Positions 2,584 through 12,434 of a stretch of DNA of 33,923 nucleotides are shown here, piece by piece. The notes below the pieces were generated by a model. It was not told the DNA's origin, ran no database searches, and saw only the letters and a program-made list of their open reading frames with translations. Position 1 is the first letter of the stretch, and each line of letters opens with the position of its first letter. The translations under genes and the position numbers were made by a program. The stretch lies in IMG/VR virus record IMGVR_UViG_3300045988_110183; one strand, written 5' to 3'. The DNA is from a virus.

Positions 2584-3306
2584 TTAGTCCTCCACCCATT
2601 TGCTTGTGTAGTGGACGCCCAGTGCGTCCGCCTTTTGCTGTAAGGCAGAGGCGGCAGCGGTAGACATTGCCTGCATGGTTACGGTGTACAGGGTCGGCGC
2701 GCTGCCGTTGTCAGCGGCAGTTTTCAGCAGGGCATCATAGTCGCCCTTGCTCATGGGGCCGATGGTGGGGATTTGCAGTTTTTTGTCTGCGGTATCGGCA
2801 GCGGGCACAGCAACGCTGTGTTCGCCCTTGTTGAACTGGTATTCCTTGCCGGTGGCAAGGGTATAATCAGCGTCAAGCCATGTAAGCGGGTTGGTGCGTT
2901 TTCCGTTGAGGATAACCTCGAAATGCAGGTGCGCGCCGTATACGTTGCCAGACGTGCCGCTGTAACCGATGATCTCACCCTCTTTAACCTTTTGCCCAAC
3001 CTTAACGCAATAGCTACTAAGGTGGGCATAGCGGGTTTGCAGAGTATGCTTTTTATAAGGGGCATGTTTGATGCGTACCATGTTGCCATAGCTCTGCATA
3101 CCTGTTTTGGTGTGCCCATCCCAGTTTTGCGTCTGATCGACCGTGCCGTCCTCGGCGGCATAGACCGGGCGGATATACATACCGTTGATCTGGGTACGCA
3201 GATCAACCGCTTGATGCAGGGAGCCGTCATTGTAATACCAGCCCTGTGTCAGCACATGAATGTCAAGCGGCCAACGCAGCAGAACTTCACCGTTGGAAAG
3301 TCGCAT
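2584..3306 (-). CDS. Endolysin, M23 (LytM-type) peptidase domain with a C-terminal extension (240 aa)
   Basis: HQAVDL ... GYSGTSGNVYGAHLHFEV matches the M23 HxxxD / HxH zinc motifs. A strong SD (GGAGGT) is present. Confidence 0.85.
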   Translation of the reverse strand: MRLSNGEVLLRWPLDIHVLTQGWYYNDGSLHQAVDLRTQINGMYIRPVYAAEDGTVDQTQNWDGHTKTGMQSYGNMVRIKHAPYKKHTLQTRYAHLSSYCVKVGQKVKEGEIIGYSGTSGNVYGAHLHFEVILNGKRTNPLTWLDADYTLATGKEYQFNKGEHSVAVPAADTADKKLQIPTIGPMSKGDYDALLKTAADNGSAPTLYTVTMQAMSTAAASALQQKADALGVHYTSKWVED

Positions 3307-3481
3307 TGTTTTTTACCTCCATTTCCGTGTTCGTAGTTTGGAATATGCCGATTGCATATTCAAATTCCAAATCAGCCAGTGCGCGGCGCTGACCGCCTGT
3401 GCAGCTGTCCTTGCGTTCAGCAAGGGCAAGTGCTTCATCGGCAAGATCAAGCGCTGCGCGGGCTATCTCTCGCGCCGTCAT
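3287..3481 (-). CDS. Possible small ORF (64 aa) bridging the RT and endolysin genes
   Basis: ATG at 3481 with a weak GGTGA SD. It overlaps the RT 3' end by 35 nt and the endolysin start by 20 nt. No domain recognised. Confidence 0.2.
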   Translation of the reverse strand: MTAREIARAALDLADEALALAERKDSCTGGQRRALADLEFEYAIGIFQTTNTEMEVKNNATFQR

Positions 3482-4562
3482 AGGCTTCACCGTCCTTGTT
3501 GGCAGATTCACGCGCCGCTTTTGCGGCAAGCGCCTCTGCCCAGATTTTACGGACGATTCCATAGGCATCGGCATGGCTTGCGTGTCCTGTCCAGCTGGTA
3601 AGCTGTTCTTGCAGTTGGTTCCAGCTGACCTCACCAGCGGCATACCGGCGGATACGTCGGCGGCAGCGGGTTATGCTGTCCTTGCGTATCAGCCGGTAAT
3701 CGTGGAAATGCCGATACCCTACAAAATCAATTCCGTGCATTGGTTTGTAAATCTTTGTTTTGGGGTTCAATTCAAGGCGCAGTTCAGTGTGTAGGAACTC
3801 GGTGATCTTTTCCAGCTGTTCAACCAGTTCGAGGCGGCTGCGCGCCAAAATGACGAAATCGTCCATGTAGCGCATATACCATTTTGCACGCAGGTTTTCT
3901 TTCACGAAACGATCAAGCGGCGTCAGGTACATACCGCCAAACAGCTGACTTGTCAGGTTACCCACAGGTACGCCGACAGGCTCGCCGGTGCCGTTGTGAT
4001 CTACGATGCAGTCCAGCAGGGCAAGCACGCGCCGGTCTTTGATTTCTTTGCGGTATTGCCACTTTAGTACGTCGTGGGACATACTCGCAAAATAACTGTG
4101 AATATCGCCCTTTAGCACCCACACATTGCCGTCCCATTCCCTGTACAGGCGGTAATACCAGCGTGACAGGTCATGACTTGCTTTGTGCGCACCGCGCCCA
4201 TCAATGCAGGCATAGGAATGGGCGTAGAACCCGCGTTCAATGATCGGGCGAATGACATTGCAGAGGGCGTGCTGGGCAACTCGGTCTTTGAATGGCAGGG
4301 CGCGAATGATTCTTTCTTTCGGCTCGTAGATGGTGAAAGACCGATAAGGCTGCGGGTGGTATGTACACATCTTGAAATCTTCCTGCAATTCCAAAAGATT
4401 TTCCGACAGGCGGGCGGTGTAGGCAAGTACCTCGGTGCGGTATCGTTTGTTTTTGCGTGCCTTTCGGTATGCTTTCAGCAGATTTTCATAGGTGTAAATT
4501 TGATCGTAAATGTTATTGATGCGTTTGTGCCCCATAAGGCAACACGGCTCCCTCTTTTGCAT
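3447..4562 (-). CDS. DGR reverse transcriptase (371 aa)
   Basis: RT motifs include the catalytic YMDD (RYMDDFVIL) and the DGR-typical VGNLTSQ segment. It lies immediately downstream of the TR. Confidence 0.9.
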   Translation of the reverse strand: MQKREPCCLMGHKRINNIYDQIYTYENLLKAYRKARKNKRYRTEVLAYTARLSENLLELQEDFKMCTYHPQPYRSFTIYEPKERIIRALPFKDRVAQHALCNVIRPIIERGFYAHSYACIDGRGAHKASHDLSRWYYRLYREWDGNVWVLKGDIHSYFASMSHDVLKWQYRKEIKDRRVLALLDCIVDHNGTGEPVGVPVGNLTSQLFGGMYLTPLDRFVKENLRAKWYMRYMDDFVILARSRLELVEQLEKITEFLHTELRLELNPKTKIYKPMHGIDFVGYRHFHDYRLIRKDSITRCRRRIRRYAAGEVSWNQLQEQLTSWTGHASHADAYGIVRKIWAEALAAKAARESANKDGEAYDGARDSPRSA

Positions 4563-4693
4563 GGGCTACTTGCGGCAGCCGTCCTTTTTGATGTTTGCCG
4601 GGTATTGCCCCGAACGGGCCGAATCCTCTGACTTCTTGAAAAGTCTGTCGGTAAAGCCTTGACCGTACCGATCTGCCCCGCGTAATAATAGAA

Positions 4694-4818
4694 GTCACAG
4701 GCCCCGCGCACGCCCACATTGGTGTTGACGTTCCAAGGGTAATTGTTGCAATTCACAGTGCGGGCACCACAGTGGGCACCGTTGTTCCAGTTGCCGCCAG
4801 CAATCAGGGCGTGGAGGG
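4694..4818 (-). repeat. DGR template repeat (TR), 125 nt
   Basis: Aligns without gaps to 5229-5353. All 13 mismatches are at TR positions that are A on the minus (coding) strand. Confidence 0.9.
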
Positions 4819-4840
4819 AAAATAAGGGTTCAGCCCATGG

Positions 4841-5182
4841 TTATGATCTTGCGTTGATGGCTTTGATAAGCCCGCCAACTCTGCCGCCAATCTCCGCCAG
4901 CTTGCGCCCGATCACTTCGTAGCGGTGGGCGTTGCAATATTTCAGGTCGTAGCCGAGGTGGAAGTAGGTGCGCAGCATATCCAGTTCCCGGTCAATGGCA
5001 TAAGCATGGCTTTTCTTCGTGCTGGATTTGCGCAAGGCAACACATTCCTCCAGCATCGTGAAAATGCAATTCTTAATCCTGTTGGTAAGGGCGAATTTCT
5101 CCGCTTTAGGCCAGTTGTTCAAGATCGGGTAGATGTACAGTGCAAAATCATAAATTAGTTGTTCTGTTTCAAGTGGATTCAT
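4841..5182 (-). CDS. avd: DGR accessory variability determinant (Avd-like, 113 aa)
   Basis: Small helical, basic protein in the canonical position between the target gene and the TR. Confidence 0.75.
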   Translation of the reverse strand: MNPLETEQLIYDFALYIYPILNNWPKAEKFALTNRIKNCIFTMLEECVALRKSSTKKSHAYAIDRELDMLRTYFHLGYDLKYCNAHRYEVIGRKLAEIGGRVGGLIKAINARS

Positions 5183-5194
5183 AGTTTTTCACAA

Positions 5195-5212
5195 GCCCCG
5201 CTTTCGCGGGGC
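5195..5212 (-). promoter_or_regulatory. GC hairpin with a GAAA loop downstream of the VR (DGR target-recognition hairpin/cruciform type)
   Basis: Minus strand GCCCCGC-GAAA-GCGGGGC, 16 nt 3' of the VR end and 7 nt 3' of the target stop codon. No U-tract follows. Confidence 0.6.
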
Positions 5213-5219
5213 AAGACGG

Positions 5220-6251
5220 TCAAACAGCGTCACAGGCCCCGCGCACGCCCACATCGGTGTGGACGTTCCAAGGGCAACTGCTGCAATACACAGCGCGGGC
5301 ACCACAGTGGGCACCGTCGCCCCAGTCGCCGCCAGCAACCAGGGCGCGGAGGGCGGTATCGGACGGCATATAAATCTGACCGTAGCCGGGTACGACGTCG
5401 TACCAGTTCCAGCTGCTTGCGGTGGGTTCAAGGCAAAGTTCGTCCAGCCATTCCCACACGTTGCCCGCGCAGTCACGCAGACCCAGCAGGCTTGTTGCGT
5501 TGGCTACATAGCCGGTCAGCTGCCGCGCCGTGTTGCTGGTAGCCGTCCAGCCGTTTGCGTTGCTGGCATCAAGCCCCTGAGGGCTTCCCTCGGCACCCTT
5601 GCACCACTCGCCGTAAGACGGCATACGCTTACCAACGCGGCGCAAGCGTTCCTGCGCAATGTACCAGTTCAGCCCCTCGGTGCCGGTAATGGGCGTGGCG
5701 TTGTACTTGCTCAACAGACCGCCGTTTGCATCGTCGCTGTTGATATAGATGTCAAGCCATGTGCCGCCGCCGATGTAAACCATAGCCTCCGGGCTGCAAG
5801 CCGGCCGCCAAAGCAGCGTCCACACGGACGCGGGCACGATGCCGTCATAGACGTCGGACACGGACAGCGATTTGCGGCATTTGCCAAAGTGGAATCCGCC
5901 GATCTTGCGGCTGGTATCGGCATTGTAGCCGGAGGGGTAGGTGCTGTTTTTGGAAATAATGTAGATTTCATCTGCATCGCTGCCGGGGTCGCACAGATAC
6001 ACATAGTAGTCAGAACCGACGGTAAAAGTGCCGCTGTCGAGGTTTGCCTCGGTCAGCACAGCGTTCTGCGTCCGAAACACACCGCCGCCGGTCAGGGCAA
6101 AAACGCAGTCGGCAAATACCGTGATCTGTTTTGCGGCGTTTGCGTCGAGGTACTTTTTGACCGGGGCAACCACATCGGACAGCGCGCCGAATACCTTGCA
6201 ATTCAGCAGGGCGCGTTTGTCGGTAAGACTATCCACAAGAAAACGGCTCAT
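5220..6251 (-). CDS. DGR target protein: tail-fibre/receptor-binding protein with a C-terminal C-type-lectin/FGE-like variable domain (343 aa)
   Basis: GNVWEW motif, and a C-terminus that contains the VR (…GGDWGDGAHCGARAVYCSSCPWNVHTDVGVRGACDAV). ATGA overlap with the upstream gene. Confidence 0.85.
   Translation of the reverse strand: MSRFLVDSLTDKRALLNCKVFGALSDVVAPVKKYLDANAAKQITVFADCVFALTGGGVFRTQNAVLTEANLDSGTFTVGSDYYVYLCDPGSDADEIYIISKNSTYPSGYNADTSRKIGGFHFGKCRKSLSVSDVYDGIVPASVWTLLWRPACSPEAMVYIGGGTWLDIYINSDDANGGLLSKYNATPITGTEGLNWYIAQERLRRVGKRMPSYGEWCKGAEGSPQGLDASNANGWTATSNTARQLTGYVANATSLLGLRDCAGNVWEWLDELCLEPTASSWNWYDVVPGYGQIYMPSDTALRALVAGGDWGDGAHCGARAVYCSSCPWNVHTDVGVRGACDAV
5229..5353 (-). repeat. 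DGR variable repeat (VR), 125 nt, ending 6 nt before the stop codon
   Basis: See the TR feature. 12 codons differ from the TR-encoded sequence (H>R, I>V, N>D, N>G, N>D, T>A, N>Y, N>S, N>S, Y>C, N>H, N>D). Confidence 0.9.
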
Positions 6252-6676
6252 AAACTCATCACCACACCTTTAATATTTTTCAGTTCGGCAGCGGTCAGCC
6301 CCATGCGCTGTGCGGCGGTGCTGGGTGCCGGAATCAGCAGGGTTTCGGTATCGGACGGCAGCGCCTTTGCAAGCGTCACCGCAGTTTTTGTCAGCTGCTT
6401 TGTGCCGGTGGCGTCATCTTCTTCGATATGCTCCACGGCGGCGATCTTGGCACCGTTGCCGGTGGTCTGACCGGCGGCAGCTTCGGCGCAGTAACCAACC
6501 GTTACCGTCGTACCGTCAACGCCCAGAATCGGGCAATGCAGGTACGCGCCCGCTTCAATCTGTTCGATAGCGGCGGCAAGCTCGCTGACAGGGAATGCGG
6601 GCGGCGTTGCCTGCGCCATGGCAAGGCAGTTCAAGAGGTCTGCCTTGGTTGCAATGGTTTTCGGAAATCCTTTCAT
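6248..6676 (-). CDS. Hypothetical tail-module protein (142 aa)
   Basis: SD AAGGAGG. Translationally coupled to the DGR target gene. No domain recognised. Confidence 0.6.
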   Translation of the reverse strand: MKGFPKTIATKADLLNCLAMAQATPPAFPVSELAAAIEQIEAGAYLHCPILGVDGTTVTVGYCAEAAAGQTTGNGAKIAAVEHIEEDDATGTKQLTKTAVTLAKALPSDTETLLIPAPSTAAQRMGLTAAELKNIKGVVMSL

Positions 6677-6691
6677 GCTATATAGCCTCCT

Positions 6692-7450
6692 TTATGTCGG
6701 CTGACAGTGGGTAAAGCCGTTGTAGCAATGCCCCACAAAGCCCTCTTTGCGTACATCTTCCCGCAAGATCGCGTCAATCTGTTCCTGCTGTTTGTCAATT
6801 TGCAGTTGCAGATTTCCGGCGGCGTCCTCGGTCAGCTGATCTTTCATGTGGGCAAACCACTTTGCAAATTCGCTTTCAAAAGCCTCCTGATCTGCAAGCG
6901 CGGTGTCGGACAGTTCGCTGAACCACGTTTCGTACTGTTTCTGCATCACGGTCAGGTCGATGCCCTTGAATTTGCAGTACACATACCCGCACAGGTCAGA
7001 ATCCGCGCGCTTGTCGGTAATCATGCTGGAGGTAATCGCGGTAGCACCGGCAGGAACGCGGACATAGTACAGGCACAGATCGTATGTTTCGGCGTCACGA
7101 ATGTAAGCGGGGGCAACCGGCGTAATGGCAGGCGTACCAGCCACGACCATTGCGTGAATATCCCGCGTGTTTACATCGCGCCGAACAACAACCGTGTCAA
7201 TACGGTCAAGCGCGCCGTCGGCATAGCCGAACGTAAGCACAAGCGGGCCGTCGTTCTTGTAGTGGTAGCCGTTCACAATAGCCCAGCCCTCGCCCAGCTG
7301 CGCGGTCATGCCGCCCGCCGGGGTAAGGGTCAGATCACCTTGCTGGCACACGCCGGAATGGAACAGAATATCCGTTGTGGCGGCGGTATCAGCGGTGGTA
7401 TATTTTCTGTCCCCATTGTGCGAGGGGAAGAATCCACTCCATTCACCCAT
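6692..7450 (-). CDS. Putative tail fibre/host-specificity structural protein (252 aa)
   Basis: SD GGAGGA. Placed in the tail module after the Tal-like gene. It has a C-terminal coiled-coil-like segment. The family is not firmly recognised. Confidence 0.55.
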   Translation of the reverse strand: MGEWSGFFPSHNGDRKYTTADTAATTDILFHSGVCQQGDLTLTPAGGMTAQLGEGWAIVNGYHYKNDGPLVLTFGYADGALDRIDTVVVRRDVNTRDIHAMVVAGTPAITPVAPAYIRDAETYDLCLYYVRVPAGATAITSSMITDKRADSDLCGYVYCKFKGIDLTVMQKQYETWFSELSDTALADQEAFESEFAKWFAHMKDQLTEDAAGNLQLQIDKQQEQIDAILREDVRKEGFVGHCYNGFTHCQPT

Positions 7451-8473
7451 TTATAAATCCTCCAAATCTAAGGTTTCGGATTTTGTTTTGCCTGTGACCG
7501 GGTAGACGGTAACGCCGCCGTTTTCGTAGATTTCCTCTACTTCGGTCACGCGCTCGGTCAGGGTCTTGCCGATGGTTGAATCGCCGGTGGTTACTTTGTC
7601 GCCTAAATCCCAATCCTCGGTGTAGACAAAATTTTCAACGTCGGTCGCCGTGCCGGTGAAGTTCTCGGTCTTGATGTGGTCGAACAGCGCCCAGCCGCAT
7701 TGTGTTTTCAGTTCGTTGCGGTATTCCGAATCAGTCTTGCCGTCCGGGGTCACGCTGGAGGCGTCAACATAGCACACCCGCTTGCGGCCACCTTTGGAAC
7801 GGTCAATGGAAACAATGGTGCCGTCGCTGCCGCGCGCATACGCAACATTGCAATAGTCGGATTCATCAAGGCTGTATTCGGCGTCGATGAAGTTCTGAAA
7901 TTCATCTGTGAAATAGACGACCGGGTTGTCCGTCTGCTCGGCGCTGTGGTCTGCGCCCTCGTACACCTGAAACGTGAATTTTTGTTCCGTGCTGTACAGC
8001 AGACGAAAGCCCAGGCCGTATGCTTTGGCAACGGCGGTCATTGCTTTCAGCGTGTTTTTGAAATCCAGCTGTATTGTGATGGCGTCGCCTGTGGGCAGGT
8101 CGGCGCGGTCAACAACCAGTTCAGGCACAGAATCGCGGGCATCTTCGGCAAGCTGGCACAGGATTTCAGCCGGGGTGCCGGTGTAGCTTTTCAAGCCGAT
8201 TACAAGCGCCATGCCGAAATAGATGGACAGCATACGCGCCGACACGGTAAGTTCGTAGCCCTTGATGTCAATGCCCATCACGCGGGCAGATTCCTTGCGG
8301 TCAACCCGGCGCAGAATGACACCGGGCTGCAACAGGGCTATGTTTTCCTCGGTGGCGTACAGGTGCAGTTCTACCTCGCCCGGTTCCCAATAACGCCGAC
8401 GCCAGCGCAGGGAGGAAAACAGGTCAATCACGCCCAGAAATTCACCGCTTTCGGCAAACACATATAATTCCAT
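7451..8473 (-). CDS. Tail-associated protein, Siphovirus Gp37-like/Tal-like (340 aa)
   Basis: N-terminus (MELYVF..GEFLGVID.FSSLRWRRRYWEPGEVELHL) resembles the Gp37-like family. It lies directly downstream of Dit. Confidence 0.6.
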   Translation of the reverse strand: MELYVFAESGEFLGVIDLFSSLRWRRRYWEPGEVELHLYATEENIALLQPGVILRRVDRKESARVMGIDIKGYELTVSARMLSIYFGMALVIGLKSYTGTPAEILCQLAEDARDSVPELVVDRADLPTGDAITIQLDFKNTLKAMTAVAKAYGLGFRLLYSTEQKFTFQVYEGADHSAEQTDNPVVYFTDEFQNFIDAEYSLDESDYCNVAYARGSDGTIVSIDRSKGGRKRVCYVDASSVTPDGKTDSEYRNELKTQCGWALFDHIKTENFTGTATDVENFVYTEDWDLGDKVTTGDSTIGKTLTERVTEVEEIYENGGVTVYPVTGKTKSETLDLEDL

Positions 8474-9341: not shown

Positions 9342-12300
9342 TCACCCCTTTAACTTGGCAAGCAGATCGCGGGTAGCAAAGCGGGTCTGCCGTGCGGTTT
9401 CGCCGGGCGACAGCGCTTGCGGGCTGGTTATGTTGACAGTCTGGTTCATGGTGGTGTTGTTGGTAACTGCCCCCGCGCCTGCGCCAGCGGTGGCAAGCGG
9501 CGAACCGTTTACCATAACCGCCATACCAGCGGTGATACCGTCGAGGGTCTTTTGCAGGTACGGCATAGCGCCGCGCATGGCGTCGGCGTAGCCGTGGATA
9601 AAATCAACCGGCCACTTCTCGTAATCGCGCAAGGGGCCTTCGTCCGGGCGGGAAAAGTGCAGCATACTACGGATGTTTTCGGCAATGCCGCGCACCTTTT
9701 CCACCACAGCGTTTGCGGCGGACGTGATACCGCGCGCCAAACCGTTGATGAAGTCAGAACCCCATTGCACAGCCTGCGCGGGCAGTGCCTTGATGTAAGT
9801 GATTGCCTGTGTAATACAGCTGACGGCGGCATTGTAGACCGCCCCGGCAACGCTGGTAATGCCGTTGGCAAGGGCATTGAACATACTGCTGCCGATGCTC
9901 GCAAGCGTACCGGGCAACCCACGGAAAAAGCCTAAAATGCCATTCCAAATGGATTGTACGGTGTTGCTGATACCTTGGCACACGCTGCTGACGATAGACA
10001 GCAGCCCATTCCACGCGGCAGAAACCGCGCCGGAAATTGCCGACATTGCCCCGCTGATAACCGCGTTGATGCCGTTCCAAATCGCTTGTACGGTGCTGCT
10101 GATCGCGCTGCAAACCGTGCTGATTGTAGACAGCAGACCATTCCATGCGGCGGAGACTGCGCTGACAATGGCATTTGCAACGCCGCTGACAACCGCCTTG
10201 ATGCCGTTCCAAATGCCGGAAACAGCGTTGGACAACGCCGACAGGATATTGGAAACATCGCTTTTCAGGGCGGTAAAATCGCCGGTGACTAAATCGCAGA
10301 TCACCAACACGACGCCCAGCACAAGAGTTTTGATGTAGTTCCAGACGTTAGAAAAAATCTCTTTGATGCCGTTAAAGGCGGTCGTCACACCGTCGCCGAT
10401 GGTGCCCCACACCGCTTGCAGGTTGCTGGCGATAGTGGAAACAATACCGCTGACAACGGCTTGAATTGCGCCCCACACAGCGGAGAAAACAGCCTGAATT
10501 GCACTAAGCGCCGTGGAGACAGCGCCGGTAATGCCAGCCCATGCCGCTTGCAGACCGCTGGCGATGGCAGAAACAACGGTGCTGACCGTTGTTTGTATCG
10601 CGTTCCACGCGGCGGAAAATCCCGCCTGCATACCGGCAAGAAACCCCTGTATGCCGCTGATTGCGCCGGAAACAACGCTTTTGATGGCTTCCCACAGTCC
10701 TATCCAGAAATTGCGGAAAGCCTCGCTTTTGTTCCACAGGGTTACAAATGCCACTACCAGTGCCGCAATGCCTGCCACGATCAGCACAACGGGATTTGCG
10801 CCAGATAGCAGACCAAACAGTCCGGAAATAGCGCCCTTTACTTTGCCGACGGTGGAGACGATCTCCGGCGCGGCTTTCAGCACACTTCCCACACTCGACA
10901 CCAACTTGCCGATGAACAGCAAGACCGGCGACAGCACGGCAATGATACCGCCCACGGTCAAGATCACTTTTTGGGTGGATTCGTCCAGACCGCTGAATTT
11001 CTGCACAAGCCCGGAAATGCCCTCGATGATCTGCGTGATAACCGGCAACAGGTTATCCATCAGGTCAATCGCGTTGTTTTTCAGTTCGTTCAGCGCTTTT
11101 GCAAATTTCTGGCTTGTGGTGTTCGTCACCTTTGCAAAGGCGGTGTCGGTGGCACCGGCGCTTTGCTCCATCGTCTGCAAAATTTCGTTGTAGTCGCTGC
11201 CGCTGTTGCGCGCAAGCACCATGGCGGCGGAACCGCCCTCCACACTGCTGAACATATCTTTCAGGGTCTTGCCGTCCTTGGCGGCGGCATCAGAAAGCAT
11301 ATTCAGAATATCGGAGGTGGAATTGCCATCGGCTTTCAGGTCTGCAAAGCCCTTGCCGGTCAGTTCCCGCAAGGTGGTATCCGTAGTACTGCCGGACTTG
11401 GTAAGTTCGTTCAGCATGGATTTCAGGTAAGTGCCGGATTCGGCGGTGGCAATACCGTTCTTGGTAAGCAGCGCATAGGCCGAGGACAACTCGGTCATAT
11501 CGTAGTTGGCAGCTGCCGCCACAGGTATGACCTTGCCCATGCTGGAGGCAAGCTCGTCAACGGTGGTTTTACCCTCGTTCTGGGTGGTAATCAGCAGATC
11601 GCTTATTTTGCTTGCATCTTCGGCTTGCAGCTGGTAGCCGTTGATTGCGGTTGTCATAACGTCCACGGCTTTTGCGGTGTCGGTAAAGCCGCCCTTTGCC
11701 AGCTTGACAGCGGAGGTCGTAAAATCTACGGCATCGCCTGCGTCCACGCTGGCGGAAATGGCGCTGTACACAGCCTCGGAAAAGTCGTTGACAGACACGC
11801 CGGTTTCACTGCTGGCCGCCATGATGTCAGCCTTGTACGCATCAAAATCCGTGCTAGATTCGTCCAACAGGGTACTGACCTTGGCAAAGGCATCTTCAAA
11901 GTCTGCCGCCAGCTTTACACCGGCAACGCCTGCGCCCGCCACAGCAGCGGACACCGGCGCAAGAGCCTTGCCCACGCTGCTGATACCGTCGCCGATAGTC
12001 TGCATCTTATCGCCGACGGCGGAAATACGCTCGCTTAGCGTTTTGGTAGCCGCTTCGCCCGCCCCTGCAAGGTCGTCGTAGGTGGCGGTCATGGTCTCGA
12101 TATTCTTTGTGGTGCTTTCGATTTCGCGGCACAGCTTGCGGTATTCTTCTTGGTTGACCTCGGTGCCGTTTTGCATATCGGCATCAACGGCTTTTTTGGC
12201 TTGCTGTAAAGCGGTCAGTTTATCTTTGCTTGCGGCAATTTCCTTGCTTAACAATTCTTGCTTTTGTGCAAGCAGAACCGTATTTGTGGGGTCTAATTTC

Positions 12301-12434
12301 AGCAGACGATTCAATTTGCCGATTTCGCGGGAAGAACTGCTGATCTTTCCGTTCAGTTCACTTAAAGCCGTGTTGAAATTTTTGGTATCGCCGCCGATCT
12401 CAACAGTAATGCCCTTGATGTTATAGGCAGGCAA
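9342..12434 (-). CDS. Tail tape measure protein (1030 aa), TP901-type core; TTG start
   Basis: Core segment AFAKVSTLLDESSTDF...VYSAISASVDAGDAVDFTTSAVKLAKGGFTD. Long Ala/Ser/Gly-rich repeats with periodic Trp. AAAGGAGG lies 9 nt before the TTG. Confidence 0.9.
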   Translation of the reverse strand: MPAYNIKGITVEIGGDTKNFNTALSELNGKISSSSREIGKLNRLLKLDPTNTVLLAQKQELLSKEIAASKDKLTALQQAKKAVDADMQNGTEVNQEEYRKLCREIESTTKNIETMTATYDDLAGAGEAATKTLSERISAVGDKMQTIGDGISSVGKALAPVSAAVAGAGVAGVKLAADFEDAFAKVSTLLDESSTDFDAYKADIMAASSETGVSVNDFSEAVYSAISASVDAGDAVDFTTSAVKLAKGGFTDTAKAVDVMTTAINGYQLQAEDASKISDLLITTQNEGKTTVDELASSMGKVIPVAAAANYDMTELSSAYALLTKNGIATAESGTYLKSMLNELTKSGSTTDTTLRELTGKGFADLKADGNSTSDILNMLSDAAAKDGKTLKDMFSSVEGGSAAMVLARNSGSDYNEILQTMEQSAGATDTAFAKVTNTTSQKFAKALNELKNNAIDLMDNLLPVITQIIEGISGLVQKFSGLDESTQKVILTVGGIIAVLSPVLLFIGKLVSSVGSVLKAAPEIVSTVGKVKGAISGLFGLLSGANPVVLIVAGIAALVVAFVTLWNKSEAFRNFWIGLWEAIKSVVSGAISGIQGFLAGMQAGFSAAWNAIQTTVSTVVSAIASGLQAAWAGITGAVSTALSAIQAVFSAVWGAIQAVVSGIVSTIASNLQAVWGTIGDGVTTAFNGIKEIFSNVWNYIKTLVLGVVLVICDLVTGDFTALKSDVSNILSALSNAVSGIWNGIKAVVSGVANAIVSAVSAAWNGLLSTISTVCSAISSTVQAIWNGINAVISGAMSAISGAVSAAWNGLLSIVSSVCQGISNTVQSIWNGILGFFRGLPGTLASIGSSMFNALANGITSVAGAVYNAAVSCITQAITYIKALPAQAVQWGSDFINGLARGITSAANAVVEKVRGIAENIRSMLHFSRPDEGPLRDYEKWPVDFIHGYADAMRGAMPYLQKTLDGITAGMAVMVNGSPLATAGAGAGAVTNNTTMNQTVNITSPQALSPGETARQTRFATRDLLAKLKG
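9997..10260 (-). repeat. Tandem 132-bp (44-aa) duplication inside the tape measure gene
   Basis: gacagcagcccattccacgcggc (from 9997) versus gacagcagaccattccatgcggc (from 10129). The protein repeat is AAWNGLLS..(44 aa)..AAWNGLLS. Confidence 0.7.

Follow-up and report, generated by a model that had tools for sequence, protein, structure and literature searches.

A BPP-1-type diversity-generating retroelement with a hypervariable Mtd-like target in a temperate gut siphovirus

The prototype diversity-generating retroelement (DGR), that of phage BPP-1, is arranged in the order mtd-avd-TR-brt and lies in a wider run of tail genes, the DGR, a small ORF overlapping the end of the reverse transcriptase (RT) gene, and an endolysin gene. 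Phages and prophages of gut Bacillota, such as Faecalibacterium prophages (PMC11792537) and Clostridium phage Saumur, carry DGRs with a target-Avd-TR-RT layout followed by endolysin and holin genes, and the Saumur element combines adenine-only mismatches between the template repeat (TR) and the variable repeat (VR) with a hairpin bearing a GRNA loop. In the survey of Wu et al. (2018; PMC5758913), Architecture B1 denotes an avd-TR-RT core with an upstream target, the single adjacent target carrying its VR at the C terminus and the TR lying directly upstream of the RT gene; the VR class relevant here is the C-type-lectin one.

The window analyzed here, the whole 33,923-nt stretch of viral DNA (IMG/VR record IMGVR_UViG_3300045988_110183), almost certainly holds a complete BPP-1-type DGR (target-avd-TR-RT), carried by a temperate siphovirus of ~34 kb whose host is a gut member of the Bacillota, probably Subdoligranulum. 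All components lie on the minus strand in the order target/VR-avd-TR-RT, which is the gene order of BPP-1, and the wider synteny is likewise retained (tail genes, DGR, small ORF, endolysin/holin). A complete element in this order had been proposed in a preliminary description; the RT, Avd, TR/VR pair, Mtd-like target, and hairpin were each tested and found, and gene calls and family matches agree with the order. The locus fits Architecture B1 and shares the layout, habitat, and host phylum of the gut Bacillota DGRs, as well as the adenine-only mismatches and GRNA-loop hairpin of Saumur. The carriers differ: BPP-1 is podovirus-like with a proteobacterial host, whereas this phage is a siphovirus of a Gram-positive gut anaerobe, and its lineage is distinct from that of the gut Bacillota DGR phages, with no nucleotide match in INPHARED and a TerL at most 64% identical to that of any deposited phage.

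The RT gene (3447-4535, minus strand) encodes a protein of 362 residues. Its ORF is open from 4562, where the gene had initially been started, and the second ATG, at 4535, is the most likely start, as the alignment to BPP-1 bRT and the gene calls made in every related contig indicate. The translation contains the VGNLTSQ and YMDD motifs, as had been reported, and matches Pfam RVT_1. Among solved structures, the best relative is BPP-1 bRT (PDB 8ub7; 1.2e-57, 199 bits), whereas other RTs (group II and "retron-type") reach at most 1e-23 and 87 bits. Amino-acid identity is 37-39% to the homologous Brt of BPP-1 and 38.6% to the RT of Saumur. Residues that contact the template or incoming nucleotide in bRT (K29, F66, R74, I76, D138, G182, Q187, D215, and D216) are kept, with Val at the position of I181, and among the phage RTs closest to this one are those of Bordetella phage, ANMV-1, and VP585, for which a DGR has been described. 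Motifs and homology together support a DGR-type RT.

The avd gene (4841-5182, minus strand) encodes a 113-residue accessory variability determinant, a four-helix-bundle protein homologous to bAvd of BPP-1. It matches Pfam bAvd (5.7e-24, 85 bits; cutoff 40), NCBIfam DivGenRetAVD (101.5 bits; cutoff 80), and the structure of Bbp7 (PDB 4dwl; 0.0017). An identical Avd is already known in RefSeq, auto-annotated as 'DGR protein Avd [Subdoligranulum variabile]' (WP_317320674.1).

A repeat search reported a single direct repeat, pairing the TR (4694-4818) with the VR (5229-5353), both read on the minus strand, over 125 nt at 90% identity without gaps; no additional VR-like copy was found in the window. 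The TR, 125 nt against 134 nt in BPP-1, contains 25 adenines and nine AAY codons in the VR frame, and the VR covers codons 301-341 of the 343-residue target, ending two codons short of the stop. Base-by-base comparison revealed 13 mismatches, all of them at a T on the plus strand of the TR, that is, an A on the coding minus strand, changed on the plus strand to C (11), G (1), or A (1); on realignment, none fell at a non-adenine TR position. Confinement of all 13 to 25 adenines among 125 positions has a hypergeometric P of 3.4e-11. Thirteen of the 25 TR adenines are thus substituted in the window VR, altering 12 codons within 302-333 of the target, eight of which are AAY Asn codons. Repeat boundaries, mismatch count, base specificity, adenine fraction, and the clustering of mostly AAY changes near the target C terminus all reproduce the initial reading. 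The TR adenines fall without exception on the first or second codon position, and changing them cannot create a stop codon.

The GC-rich, IMH-like 3' end of the VR (5229-5253, minus strand; TGTGGGCGTGCGCGGGGCCTGTGAC) recurs as the same 25 nt at TR positions 4694-4718. An identical end of 25 nt had been described and the shared end is confirmed, with a correction to its length: the identical run in the window is 26 nt, as is the string originally quoted, and 25 nt is the run that is invariant across the population. No sequence similarity extends beyond the repeat end, and therefore an IMH/IMH* pair with few mismatches, delineable in BPP-1, cannot be delineated here.

The target gene (5220-6251, minus strand) encodes a 343-residue Mtd-like protein composed of an N-terminal part, an Mtd second domain, and a C-terminal C-type-lectin/FGE-type domain. 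It matches Pfam mtd_2nd (4e-34) and FGE-sulfatase (3.9e-7), both exceeding cutoff, and PHROG 11262 'tail protein' (4e-74). Against the PDB structure of Mtd, to which it is 29% identical, the match is 1.7e-19 as a single sequence and 2.9e-32 as a profile, nearly full length, and a homologue in nr with 90% identity carries the name "major tropism determinant". The AlphaFold model (pLDDT 80) returned Mtd as the best Foldseek match (E = 1.3e-20, TM 0.65), followed by TaqVP, FGE, and EgtB. The Thermus aquaticus TaqVP (PDB 5vf4; E = 1e-5) likewise bears its variable residues on a C-type-lectin/FGE-type fold; it is a much weaker match than Mtd (TM 0.35 versus 0.65), lacks the Mtd second domain, and is not a phage tail protein. 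The variable positions are in register with Mtd, 11 of the 12 sites that differ among five crystallised Mtd variants aligning to adenine-containing TR codons, and in both proteins the VR lies at the extreme C terminus and ends in ...G-x-R-G-x-C-D. The target of Saumur was missing among the Mtd-like tblastn matches. The gene follows the tape-measure, Dit, and Sipho_Gp37 genes within a siphovirus tail module. Homology to Mtd and a C-type-lectin fold of the FGE subtype are thus supported at the levels of sequence, profile, and predicted structure. The preliminary description had placed the VR in the C-type-lectin tip of a tail fibre; the fold, which the model search recovered as Mtd and then FGE/C-type-lectin-fold proteins, and the C-terminal VR both stand, and "receptor-binding tail protein (Mtd homologue)" is the safer wording for "tail fibre".

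The interval that separates the target stop codon from the avd start contains, 16 nt 3' of the VR, a putative target-site hairpin/cruciform (5195-5212, minus strand) with a 7-bp GC stem (GCCCCGC/GCGGGGC) and a GAAA loop. It resembles its counterpart in BPP-1, which also lies downstream of the VR and joins a GC stem, there of 8 bp, to a GAAA loop. Folded as DNA, the hairpin of the window reaches -12.6 kcal/mol (z = -4.2), with none of 200 shuffles as stable, and it is invariant in 17 copies. A trailing T-tract is absent, and no terminator was called there. The published consensus specifies a 7-10 bp GC stem, a 4-nt GRNA loop, and a distance of 4-34 bp from the VR (PMC3240598), and the hairpin fits on stem, loop, and distance, bearing out its earlier description as Bordetella-like.

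The spacer of the DGR RNA between the TR and the RT gene (4536-4693, minus strand) resembles that of BPP-1 in being a putative structured RNA of ~140-160 nt, the family assignment differing between the two. Rfam RT-9 (RF03080) matches here at 4583-4673 with 47.5 bits, just over the gathering score of 46.1, and collinear matches to RT-14 and Phage_DGR fall below threshold, whereas the Phage_DGR model maps to the equivalent BPP-1 spacer with 104.7 bits. Within the spacer, a tetraloop stem-loop (4648-4671, minus strand) is a candidate Avd-binding element. RNAduplex and the MFE fold both predict a long-range duplex bracketing the TR on the minus strand, pairing an upstream arm (4824-4840) with a downstream arm (4614-4628) over 14 bp with one mismatch. 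The predicted stem-loop and the putative duplex resemble those described for the BPP-1 RNP, the duplex suggesting its 'cPRT Stop' duplex; the fold of the whole RNA region is no better than that of shuffles (z = -0.2).

The population was represented by 26 TR/VR pairs, comprising the window and 25 related metagenomic copies with 96.7-100% background identity. Twenty-five distinct VRs occur among the 26 copies, and 278 of the 280 TR/VR mismatches fall at TR adenines, in line with the proposed check that VR heterogeneity among related genomes be restricted to such positions. One of the two exceptions is at the repeat boundary beside an indel and the other is a C-to-T change in a VR, and this frequency is within the range of the PMC5758913 survey, in which 23% of DGRs have at least one non-adenine difference. 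Across the population, 24 of the 25 TR adenines vary (A124 is never substituted) and 43% of adenines are substituted; population and window together give about 43-52%, compared with the ~50% reported for BPP-1. The mean minor-allele frequency of the VR is 0.079 versus 0.003-0.011 in the flanks, a 7- to 25-fold excess, and the 25-nt 3' end of VR and TR shows no variation in the 26 copies save an inherited C107T. The TR is identical in 19 of the 25 related copies, and the six variant TRs carry point variants, except L014 with five changes. Private TR changes, namely C107T (L002 and L020), C56T (L011), C92T (L025), and the five in L014, all recur in the cognate VR, whereas one copy (L016) has a private VR change absent from its own TR. 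Since C107T was copied from TR to VR, the transferred tract extends at least to TR position 107. Information transfer from TR to VR is directional, the VR being hypervariable and the TR conserved, and the 26 pairs show, at the population level, that the element has been active in nature.

The RT could be that of a different kind of retroelement (a group II intron, a retron, or a defence-associated Drt), with the 125-nt repeat an unrelated duplication held similar by gene conversion: the top-scoring NCBIfam model is indeed a group II intron RT/maturase (130 bits), and some database records call close homologues 'retron-type reverse transcriptase'. Yet that group II model (TIGR04416) has a cutoff of 300 bits, the retron St85 model reaches 32 of the 235 bits required, and the Drt2-5 models score 26-49 bits against cutoffs of 200-550. 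An Rfam search over 3300-6400 (E <= 1) found neither a group II intron nor a retron RNA, and 278 of 280 differences on one base of one copy is beyond ordinary duplication or gene conversion. The sub-cutoff scores, the lead of bRT over all other solved RTs, the missing RNAs, and the adenine bias effectively refute this identity, to which we assign a negligible probability. The target, similarly, might be an FGE/EgtB-type enzyme in place of a receptor-binding virion protein, as the FGE-sulfatase match, the match of its C-terminal 100 residues alone to EgtB-IV, and the NCBI name of some homologues ('SUMF1/EgtB/PvdO family nonheme iron enzyme') would suggest. However, the resemblance to Mtd, which is the receptor-binding protein of BPP-1, holds over the whole length in both sequence and fold and includes the Mtd-specific second domain, the gene is embedded in the tail module, and the FGE-type C-type-lectin fold is the standard scaffold for DGR variable proteins, as with TaqVP, the second-best fold match. 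An enzymatic target is accordingly very improbable.

A third reading concerns activity: the element may be a genuine DGR that is silent or a recent fossil in this copy, the TR/VR differences recording past activity and the VR now being ordinarily inherited. One copy from another sample record (L030) has the same VR as the window and 100% identity over 3.3 kb, which indicates that turnover is not so fast that all samples differ; the two may, however, simply come from one strain or one sample. Three of the ten copies retrieved via the Avd protein (L013, L015, and L018) have frameshifted RTs, and L015 and L018 have each lost one further nucleotide, in the TR boundary or spacer, so that DGR decay does occur in this lineage. 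Against this, the RT, Avd, TR, spacer, hairpin, and target of the window are all intact and match the majority alleles, and 25 VRs among 26 copies that are 0-3% apart elsewhere require many recent independent homing events. We regard a silent copy as unlikely.

For an active BPP-1-type element, the BPP-1 literature suggests the following course. A minus-strand transcript spanning the avd end, the TR, and the spacer (roughly 4840 to 4536) would fold with RT and Avd into an RNP. The RT would prime on the RNA itself, inside the GC-rich 3' end of the TR, and copy the TR into cDNA with random nucleotides opposite adenines; the self-priming and the role of Avd are taken from BPP-1, as are cDNA synthesis and the priming site. 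The cDNA would then replace the VR at the 3' end of the Mtd-like gene, presumably guided by the shared GC-rich, IMH-like 3' end and the GAAA hairpin just downstream, elements whose functions are likewise extrapolated from BPP-1. Up to 15 adenine-bearing codons seen varying, nine of them AAY, could be re-randomised in this way on the predicted C-type-lectin ligand-binding face of the receptor-binding protein, giving a theoretical diversity of ~6e14 peptides without stop codons. Such diversity would allow the phage population to track changing host receptors, receptor switching being the benefit we infer from BPP-1.

Two patterns among the copies bear on the natural history of such elements. In L014, five TR adenines are replaced by exactly the bases of its own VR, and that VR has since diverged at another adenine; if the pattern is true, the template is at times rewritten from mutagenised cDNA or from the VR. 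The three RT frameshifts are independent, lie within 41 nt (window 4092-4132), and are all on contigs of 60-265 kb, longer than the ~34-kb phage, which are probably chromosomally integrated copies. That these copies capture rarely documented natural DGR dynamics, namely TR drift or erosion and recurrent RT shut-off, is a tentative and rather doubtful proposal. If real and not assembly noise, it would make this very prevalent Subdoligranulum phage a natural system for DGR switch-off and template evolution.

Gut phages are well known to carry DGRs whose targets are Mtd-like C-type-lectin proteins, and the element adds no new biology. Its value is as a clean, very prevalent example in which public assemblies alone show adenine-specific VR turnover and TR-to-VR copying, and it could serve DGR finders as a positive control or be tried in experiments on the evolution of host range in gut phages, the likely host genus, Subdoligranulum, being cultivable. 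In the assembly collection, 793 blocks and more than 400 contigs contain this Avd.

The diversity-generating retroelement (DGR) contains a single long direct repeat, composed of a template repeat (TR, 4694-4818) and a variable repeat (VR, 5229-5353) that are 125 nt long and 90% identical. Base-by-base comparison reveals a gapless alignment with 13 mismatches, each at a plus-strand T of the promoter-distal copy (A on the minus, coding strand) that changes on the plus strand to C (11), G (1) or A (1). Thirteen of the 25 TR adenines are substituted in the window VR and none of the 13 mismatches falls on a non-adenine position, with a hypergeometric P of 3.4e-11 for all 13 landing on the 25 adenines among 125 positions. 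The VR, the upstream copy, spans codons 301-341 of a 343-codon minus-strand ORF (5220-6251), and the substitutions alter 12 codons, eight of them AAY. Read in the VR frame, the TR has nine AAY codons and places all 25 adenines at codon position 1 or 2; no stop codon is reachable by any adenine substitution, and the theoretical repertoire computed from the TR adenines is ~6e14 peptides. A search of the window at up to 40% mismatch returned no third repeat copy and no additional or remote VR. The gapless repeat, the restriction of its mismatches to TR adenines, and the counts of 13/25 adenines and 12 codons match the preliminary description; the identical 3′ run reported there is also present, but is 26 nt long in the window rather than 25, as is the string quoted for it.

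Near-identical copies of the element were gathered by an RT (reverse transcriptase) peptide scan of IMG/VR, exact look-ups of the Avd (accessory variability determinant) and the RT, and a TR-spacer DNA pattern search. The dataset, composed of 26 TR/VR pairs including the window and sharing 96.7-100% identity with it over 3.3 kb, contains 25 distinct VRs. Only L030 (ERZ28627210, SAMN06164711), a contig at 100% identity to the window across the compared 3.3 kb and probably the same strain or the window's source sample, has the window's VR. Across the 26 pairs, 278 of 280 TR/VR mismatches lie at TR adenines, in line with the adenine-limited variation that the preliminary description proposed seeking in related genomes. 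Twenty-four of the 25 TR adenines vary, the exception being A124 within the GC-rich 3′ end, and 43% are substituted across copies, compared with ~50% in BPP-1, the Bordetella phage DGR prototype, in vitro and in vivo (PMC6182149). The TR is unchanged in 19 of the 25 related copies, and minor-allele frequency averages 0.079 across the VR, compared with 0.003-0.011 for the TR, spacer, avd, RT and the target gene outside the VR. The most telling population result is directionality from TR to VR: every private TR substitution is also found in the VR of the same copy, namely C107T (L002, L020), C56T (L011), C92T (L025) and five changes in L014. Another copy, L016, has a single private non-adenine VR change that is not in its TR. 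C107T is transferred and A124 never varies, which puts the beginning of the copied stretch at a point between TR positions 108 and 124, analogous to initiation at TR G117 of 134 in BPP-1. The DGR lineage has clearly been active very recently.

The RT, encoded by the minus-strand ORF 3447-4562 and carrying Pfam RVT_1, is assigned a start at the second ATG (4535), based on its alignment with the BPP-1 enzyme (bRT) and on the related contigs, all of which have the gene called at 362 aa. Among solved structures its closest relative is bRT (8ub7; E = 1.2e-57, 199 bits, residues 13-337 against 3-316), whereas the next solved relatives, group II or "retron-type" RTs, score 1e-23 or worse. Residues contacting the template and incoming nucleotide have been defined in the bRT cryo-EM structure (10.1101/2023.10.23.563531). 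K29, F66, R74, I76, G182 and Q187 of this set are kept in the aligned RT, as are the catalytic D138, D215 and D216, supporting the earlier assignment to the DGR type. A Val replaces bRT I181, giving the motif VGNLTSQ, which we take to match the DGR signature [I/V/L]GxxxSQ. Upstream, the minus-strand ORF 4841-5182 encodes the Avd proposed earlier for this cassette, passing the NCBIfam DGR-Avd equivalog model (101.5 bits, cutoff 80), with additional matches to Pfam bAvd and, in the PDB, to BPP-1 Bbp7/bAvd.

The target protein possesses two Pfam domains, "Mtd second domain" (4e-34) and FGE-sulfatase, and matches five crystallised variants of the BPP-1 protein Mtd at 2e-19 as a single sequence and at 2.9e-32, over nearly its full length, as a 28-sequence profile. 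An AlphaFold model from the 28-sequence alignment had an unusable C-terminus (pLDDT 50), and Foldseek with this model returned Mtd as the only matches (TM 0.34). A second model, from a 121-sequence alignment, reached pLDDT 80 and pTM 0.76 and ranks Mtd variants at the top (E = 1.3e-20, TM 0.65), followed by the Thermus DGR variable protein TaqVP and then FGE, EgtB and PvdO, which have the FGE-type C-type-lectin fold in common. The predicted structure agrees with the C-type-lectin fold anticipated for the target C-terminus. Comparison of the TR-encoded peptide of the window (GGNWNNGAHCGARTVNCNNYPWNVNTNVGVRGACD) with the five Mtd variants reveals that 11 of the 12 positions differing among those variants align with adenine-containing TR codons, making the scaffold under diversification positionally homologous to that of Mtd. 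One homologue, sharing 90% identity with the target, carries the name "major tropism determinant [Caudoviricetes sp.]". Among Mtd-like homologues (P0003, P0014, P0020, P0113 and others), several clusters at 90% identity hold very many distinct members (1,100; 12,503; 8,367; 33,376), as expected for DGR-diversified proteins.

A hairpin, GCCCCGC-GAAA-GCGGGGC (5195-5212), is positioned 16 nt past the VR. Its stability is far above that of shuffled sequence (z = -4.2, with 0/200 shuffles as stable), and its sequence is unchanged across 17 copies. The element fits the published consensus for phage DGR target hairpins, a GC stem of 7-10 bp with a 4-nt GRNA loop located 4-34 bp from the VR, in which GAAA is the functional loop of the BPP-1 hairpin (PMC3240598). 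The fold test and this consensus agree with the 7-bp GC stem and GAAA loop described earlier, and both the repeat pair and the hairpin are confirmed. An intrinsic terminator was rejected as an identity for the hairpin, which has no T-tract and was not called in the terminator scan.

The 158-nt TR-RT spacer matches Rfam RT-9 at 4583-4673 with 47.5 bits, just over the gathering score of 46.1, with collinear sub-threshold matches to RT-14 and Phage_DGR. Phage_DGR maps exactly onto the BPP-1 TR-brt spacer (104.7 bits), and the window spacer thus corresponds in position to the BPP-1 Sp RNA. A putative tetraloop stem-loop (4648-4671) and a predicted 14-bp long-range duplex between 4824-4840, the 17 nt just past the avd stop, and 4614-4628 are candidate counterparts of elements known from the bRT-Avd-RNA particle, which have also been predicted in 207 further DGRs. 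Sequence divergence among the related copies is too low to reveal covariation in these two elements. A fold of the whole DGR RNA region is no more stable than shuffles, and structural claims are therefore limited to the Rfam match and local elements. The 19 nt directly 3′ of the TR (4667-4685) are 79% complementary to the sense strand directly 3′ of the VR (5202-5220); this stretch takes in the 5′ arm of the GAAA hairpin, and the TR flank carries a copy of its 3′ arm, GCGGGGC. The complementarity is equalled by only 3/300 shuffles. The relation was absent from the five other DGRs checked: nothing comparable occurs in L006, L008, Saumur or YPCBV-1, and BPP-1 has only an 8-nt match elsewhere. 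Pairing of the DGR RNA with the target hairpin was rejected as a general feature and is probably GC-rich chance.

Standard mutagenic retrohoming is the best-supported explanation of the element. The cassette parts and their homologies, the adenine-specific signature, VR hypervariation and TR-to-VR copying were observed directly; self-priming from the spacer, a role for Avd, integration guided by the hairpin and IMH (the GC-rich identical 3′ end region of the repeats), and receptor switching would, by analogy with BPP-1, belong to the same process. A non-DGR RT accompanied by a coincidental repeat is effectively excluded: the RT scores far under the curated cutoffs of all NCBIfam models for group II maturase, retron St85 and Drt2-5, bRT is its best solved relative, and 278/280 mismatches fall at adenines. 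There is little support for this individual copy being currently silent, as every DGR part is intact in the window and the lineage has so recently been active. Automatic names such as "SUMF1/EgtB/PvdO family" suggest instead that the target is an enzyme, and some sources call its Mtd-like homologues 'SUMF1/EgtB/PvdO family nonheme iron enzyme'. This reading likewise has little support, being contradicted by Mtd homology across the full length of the protein and by the placement of its gene in the tail module; the naming is likely a functional misannotation of a receptor-binding protein.

The gene order is the same as in BPP-1, running from tail genes through mtd, avd, TR, brt and small ORFs to the endolysin. 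Characterised BPP-1/Mtd-type examples have RTs 37-40% identical and targets 29% identical to those of the present element, which is a divergent member of that subgroup. The element fits Architecture B1 of the Wu et al. survey, with a C-terminal C-type-lectin VR (PMC5758913), and similar cassettes occur in Clostridium phage Saumur and other gut Bacillota phages. Faecalibacterium prophages have been reported as DGR-rich (PMC11792537). The DGR components are already recognised by automatic annotation.

The window is an essentially complete siphovirus genome of ~34 kb, encoding TerL, portal, a ClpP-type protease, an HK97-type capsid and tail tube proteins, and no tRNA genes were found in it. The tail module preceding the DGR is composed of the tape measure (9342-12434), Dit, Sipho_Gp37, a 252-aa virion protein and a 142-aa protein; beyond the DGR lie a 64-aa ORF, an M23 peptidase, holin-like genes and an IS30-like transposase. 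The conserved 64-aa ORF (3287-3481, minus) overlaps the RT 3′ end by 35 nt, as the small ORF bbp4, in a similar place, overlaps the end of brt in BPP-1; gene calls include it in nearly every related contig, and neither Pfam nor PHROG assigns it to a family. The DDE transposase (92-1141, minus; HTH_38 and rve, PHROG 4646 at 3e-128) lies in a segment (1-2000) with 46% GC versus ~55%. Related phage-sized contigs conserve it, and it may therefore be an enzyme that the phage itself uses for integration instead of an IS that inserted there. INPHARED phages gave no nucleotide match to the cassette by megablast, and TerL identity to Bacillota phages is at most 64%. The RT peptide scan of GTDB representative genomes yielded candidates, none confirmed, and the host was therefore inferred by exact-protein look-up. 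The Avd is identical to WP_317320674.1, 'DGR protein Avd [Subdoligranulum variabile]', with the same protein in a phage MAG record, in 405 contigs and in 793 blocks of the assembly collection. A literature search for DGR and Subdoligranulum found no paper.

Several related contigs depart from this arrangement. In L004 (IMGVR_UViG_3300023545_000154), positions 1-1871, matching window 6692-7613, include a segment inverted relative to the window, comprising the 252-aa virion protein gene and the last 160 nt of the Sipho_Gp37 gene. The junction lies exactly at the stop-codon end of the 252-aa ORF and adjoins sequence that the window lacks and that codes for the C-terminal portion of a large serine recombinase. 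The inversion could be genuine, or it could reflect an assembly fold-back or a prophage end. L022 (OPNV01007267, 2.6 kb, 1.9x coverage) lacks 253 nt (window 3422-3674) that cover the 3′ end of the RT and the beginning of the 64-aa ORF, either as a deletion variant or as an assembly artefact. In L013, L015 and L018, independent 1-nt indels (+A 4114, -T 4092 and -A 4132, in window coordinates) frameshift the RT, all within 41 nt (4092-4132). These contigs of 60-265 kb are longer than the ~34-kb phage and probably represent prophages that have integrated. A further 1-nt deletion is present in both L015 and L018, at the TR 5′ boundary (4818) or in the small spacer hairpin (4611), and the VRs of these copies are still diversified, with 7-11 adenine changes. 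The clustering of frameshifts could reflect decay of the DGR, a hot spot for indels or errors in assembly.

L019 (ERZ825896 NODE-21325, 2.5 kb), in which a VR/TR hybrid repeat links the target directly to the 3′ half of the TR, the spacer and the RT, with avd deleted, is most likely an assembly collapse through the 125-nt repeat, the alternative being a rare VR x TR recombinant. As a hybrid contig without avd at 1.3x coverage, it was rejected as a TR variant and left out of that analysis. The TR of L014 (ERZ28616148 scaffold_196) has lost five adenines, at positions 87, 88, 94, 99 and 100, with replacement bases exactly those of its own VR, which differs from this TR at a further adenine (position 96) within that stretch. 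Only ~13 identical nt remain before the closest differences on the flanks, short for a de Bruijn assembly switch, and the variant may therefore be real. It may represent template erosion, in which VR or cDNA overwrote the TR, followed by further homing.
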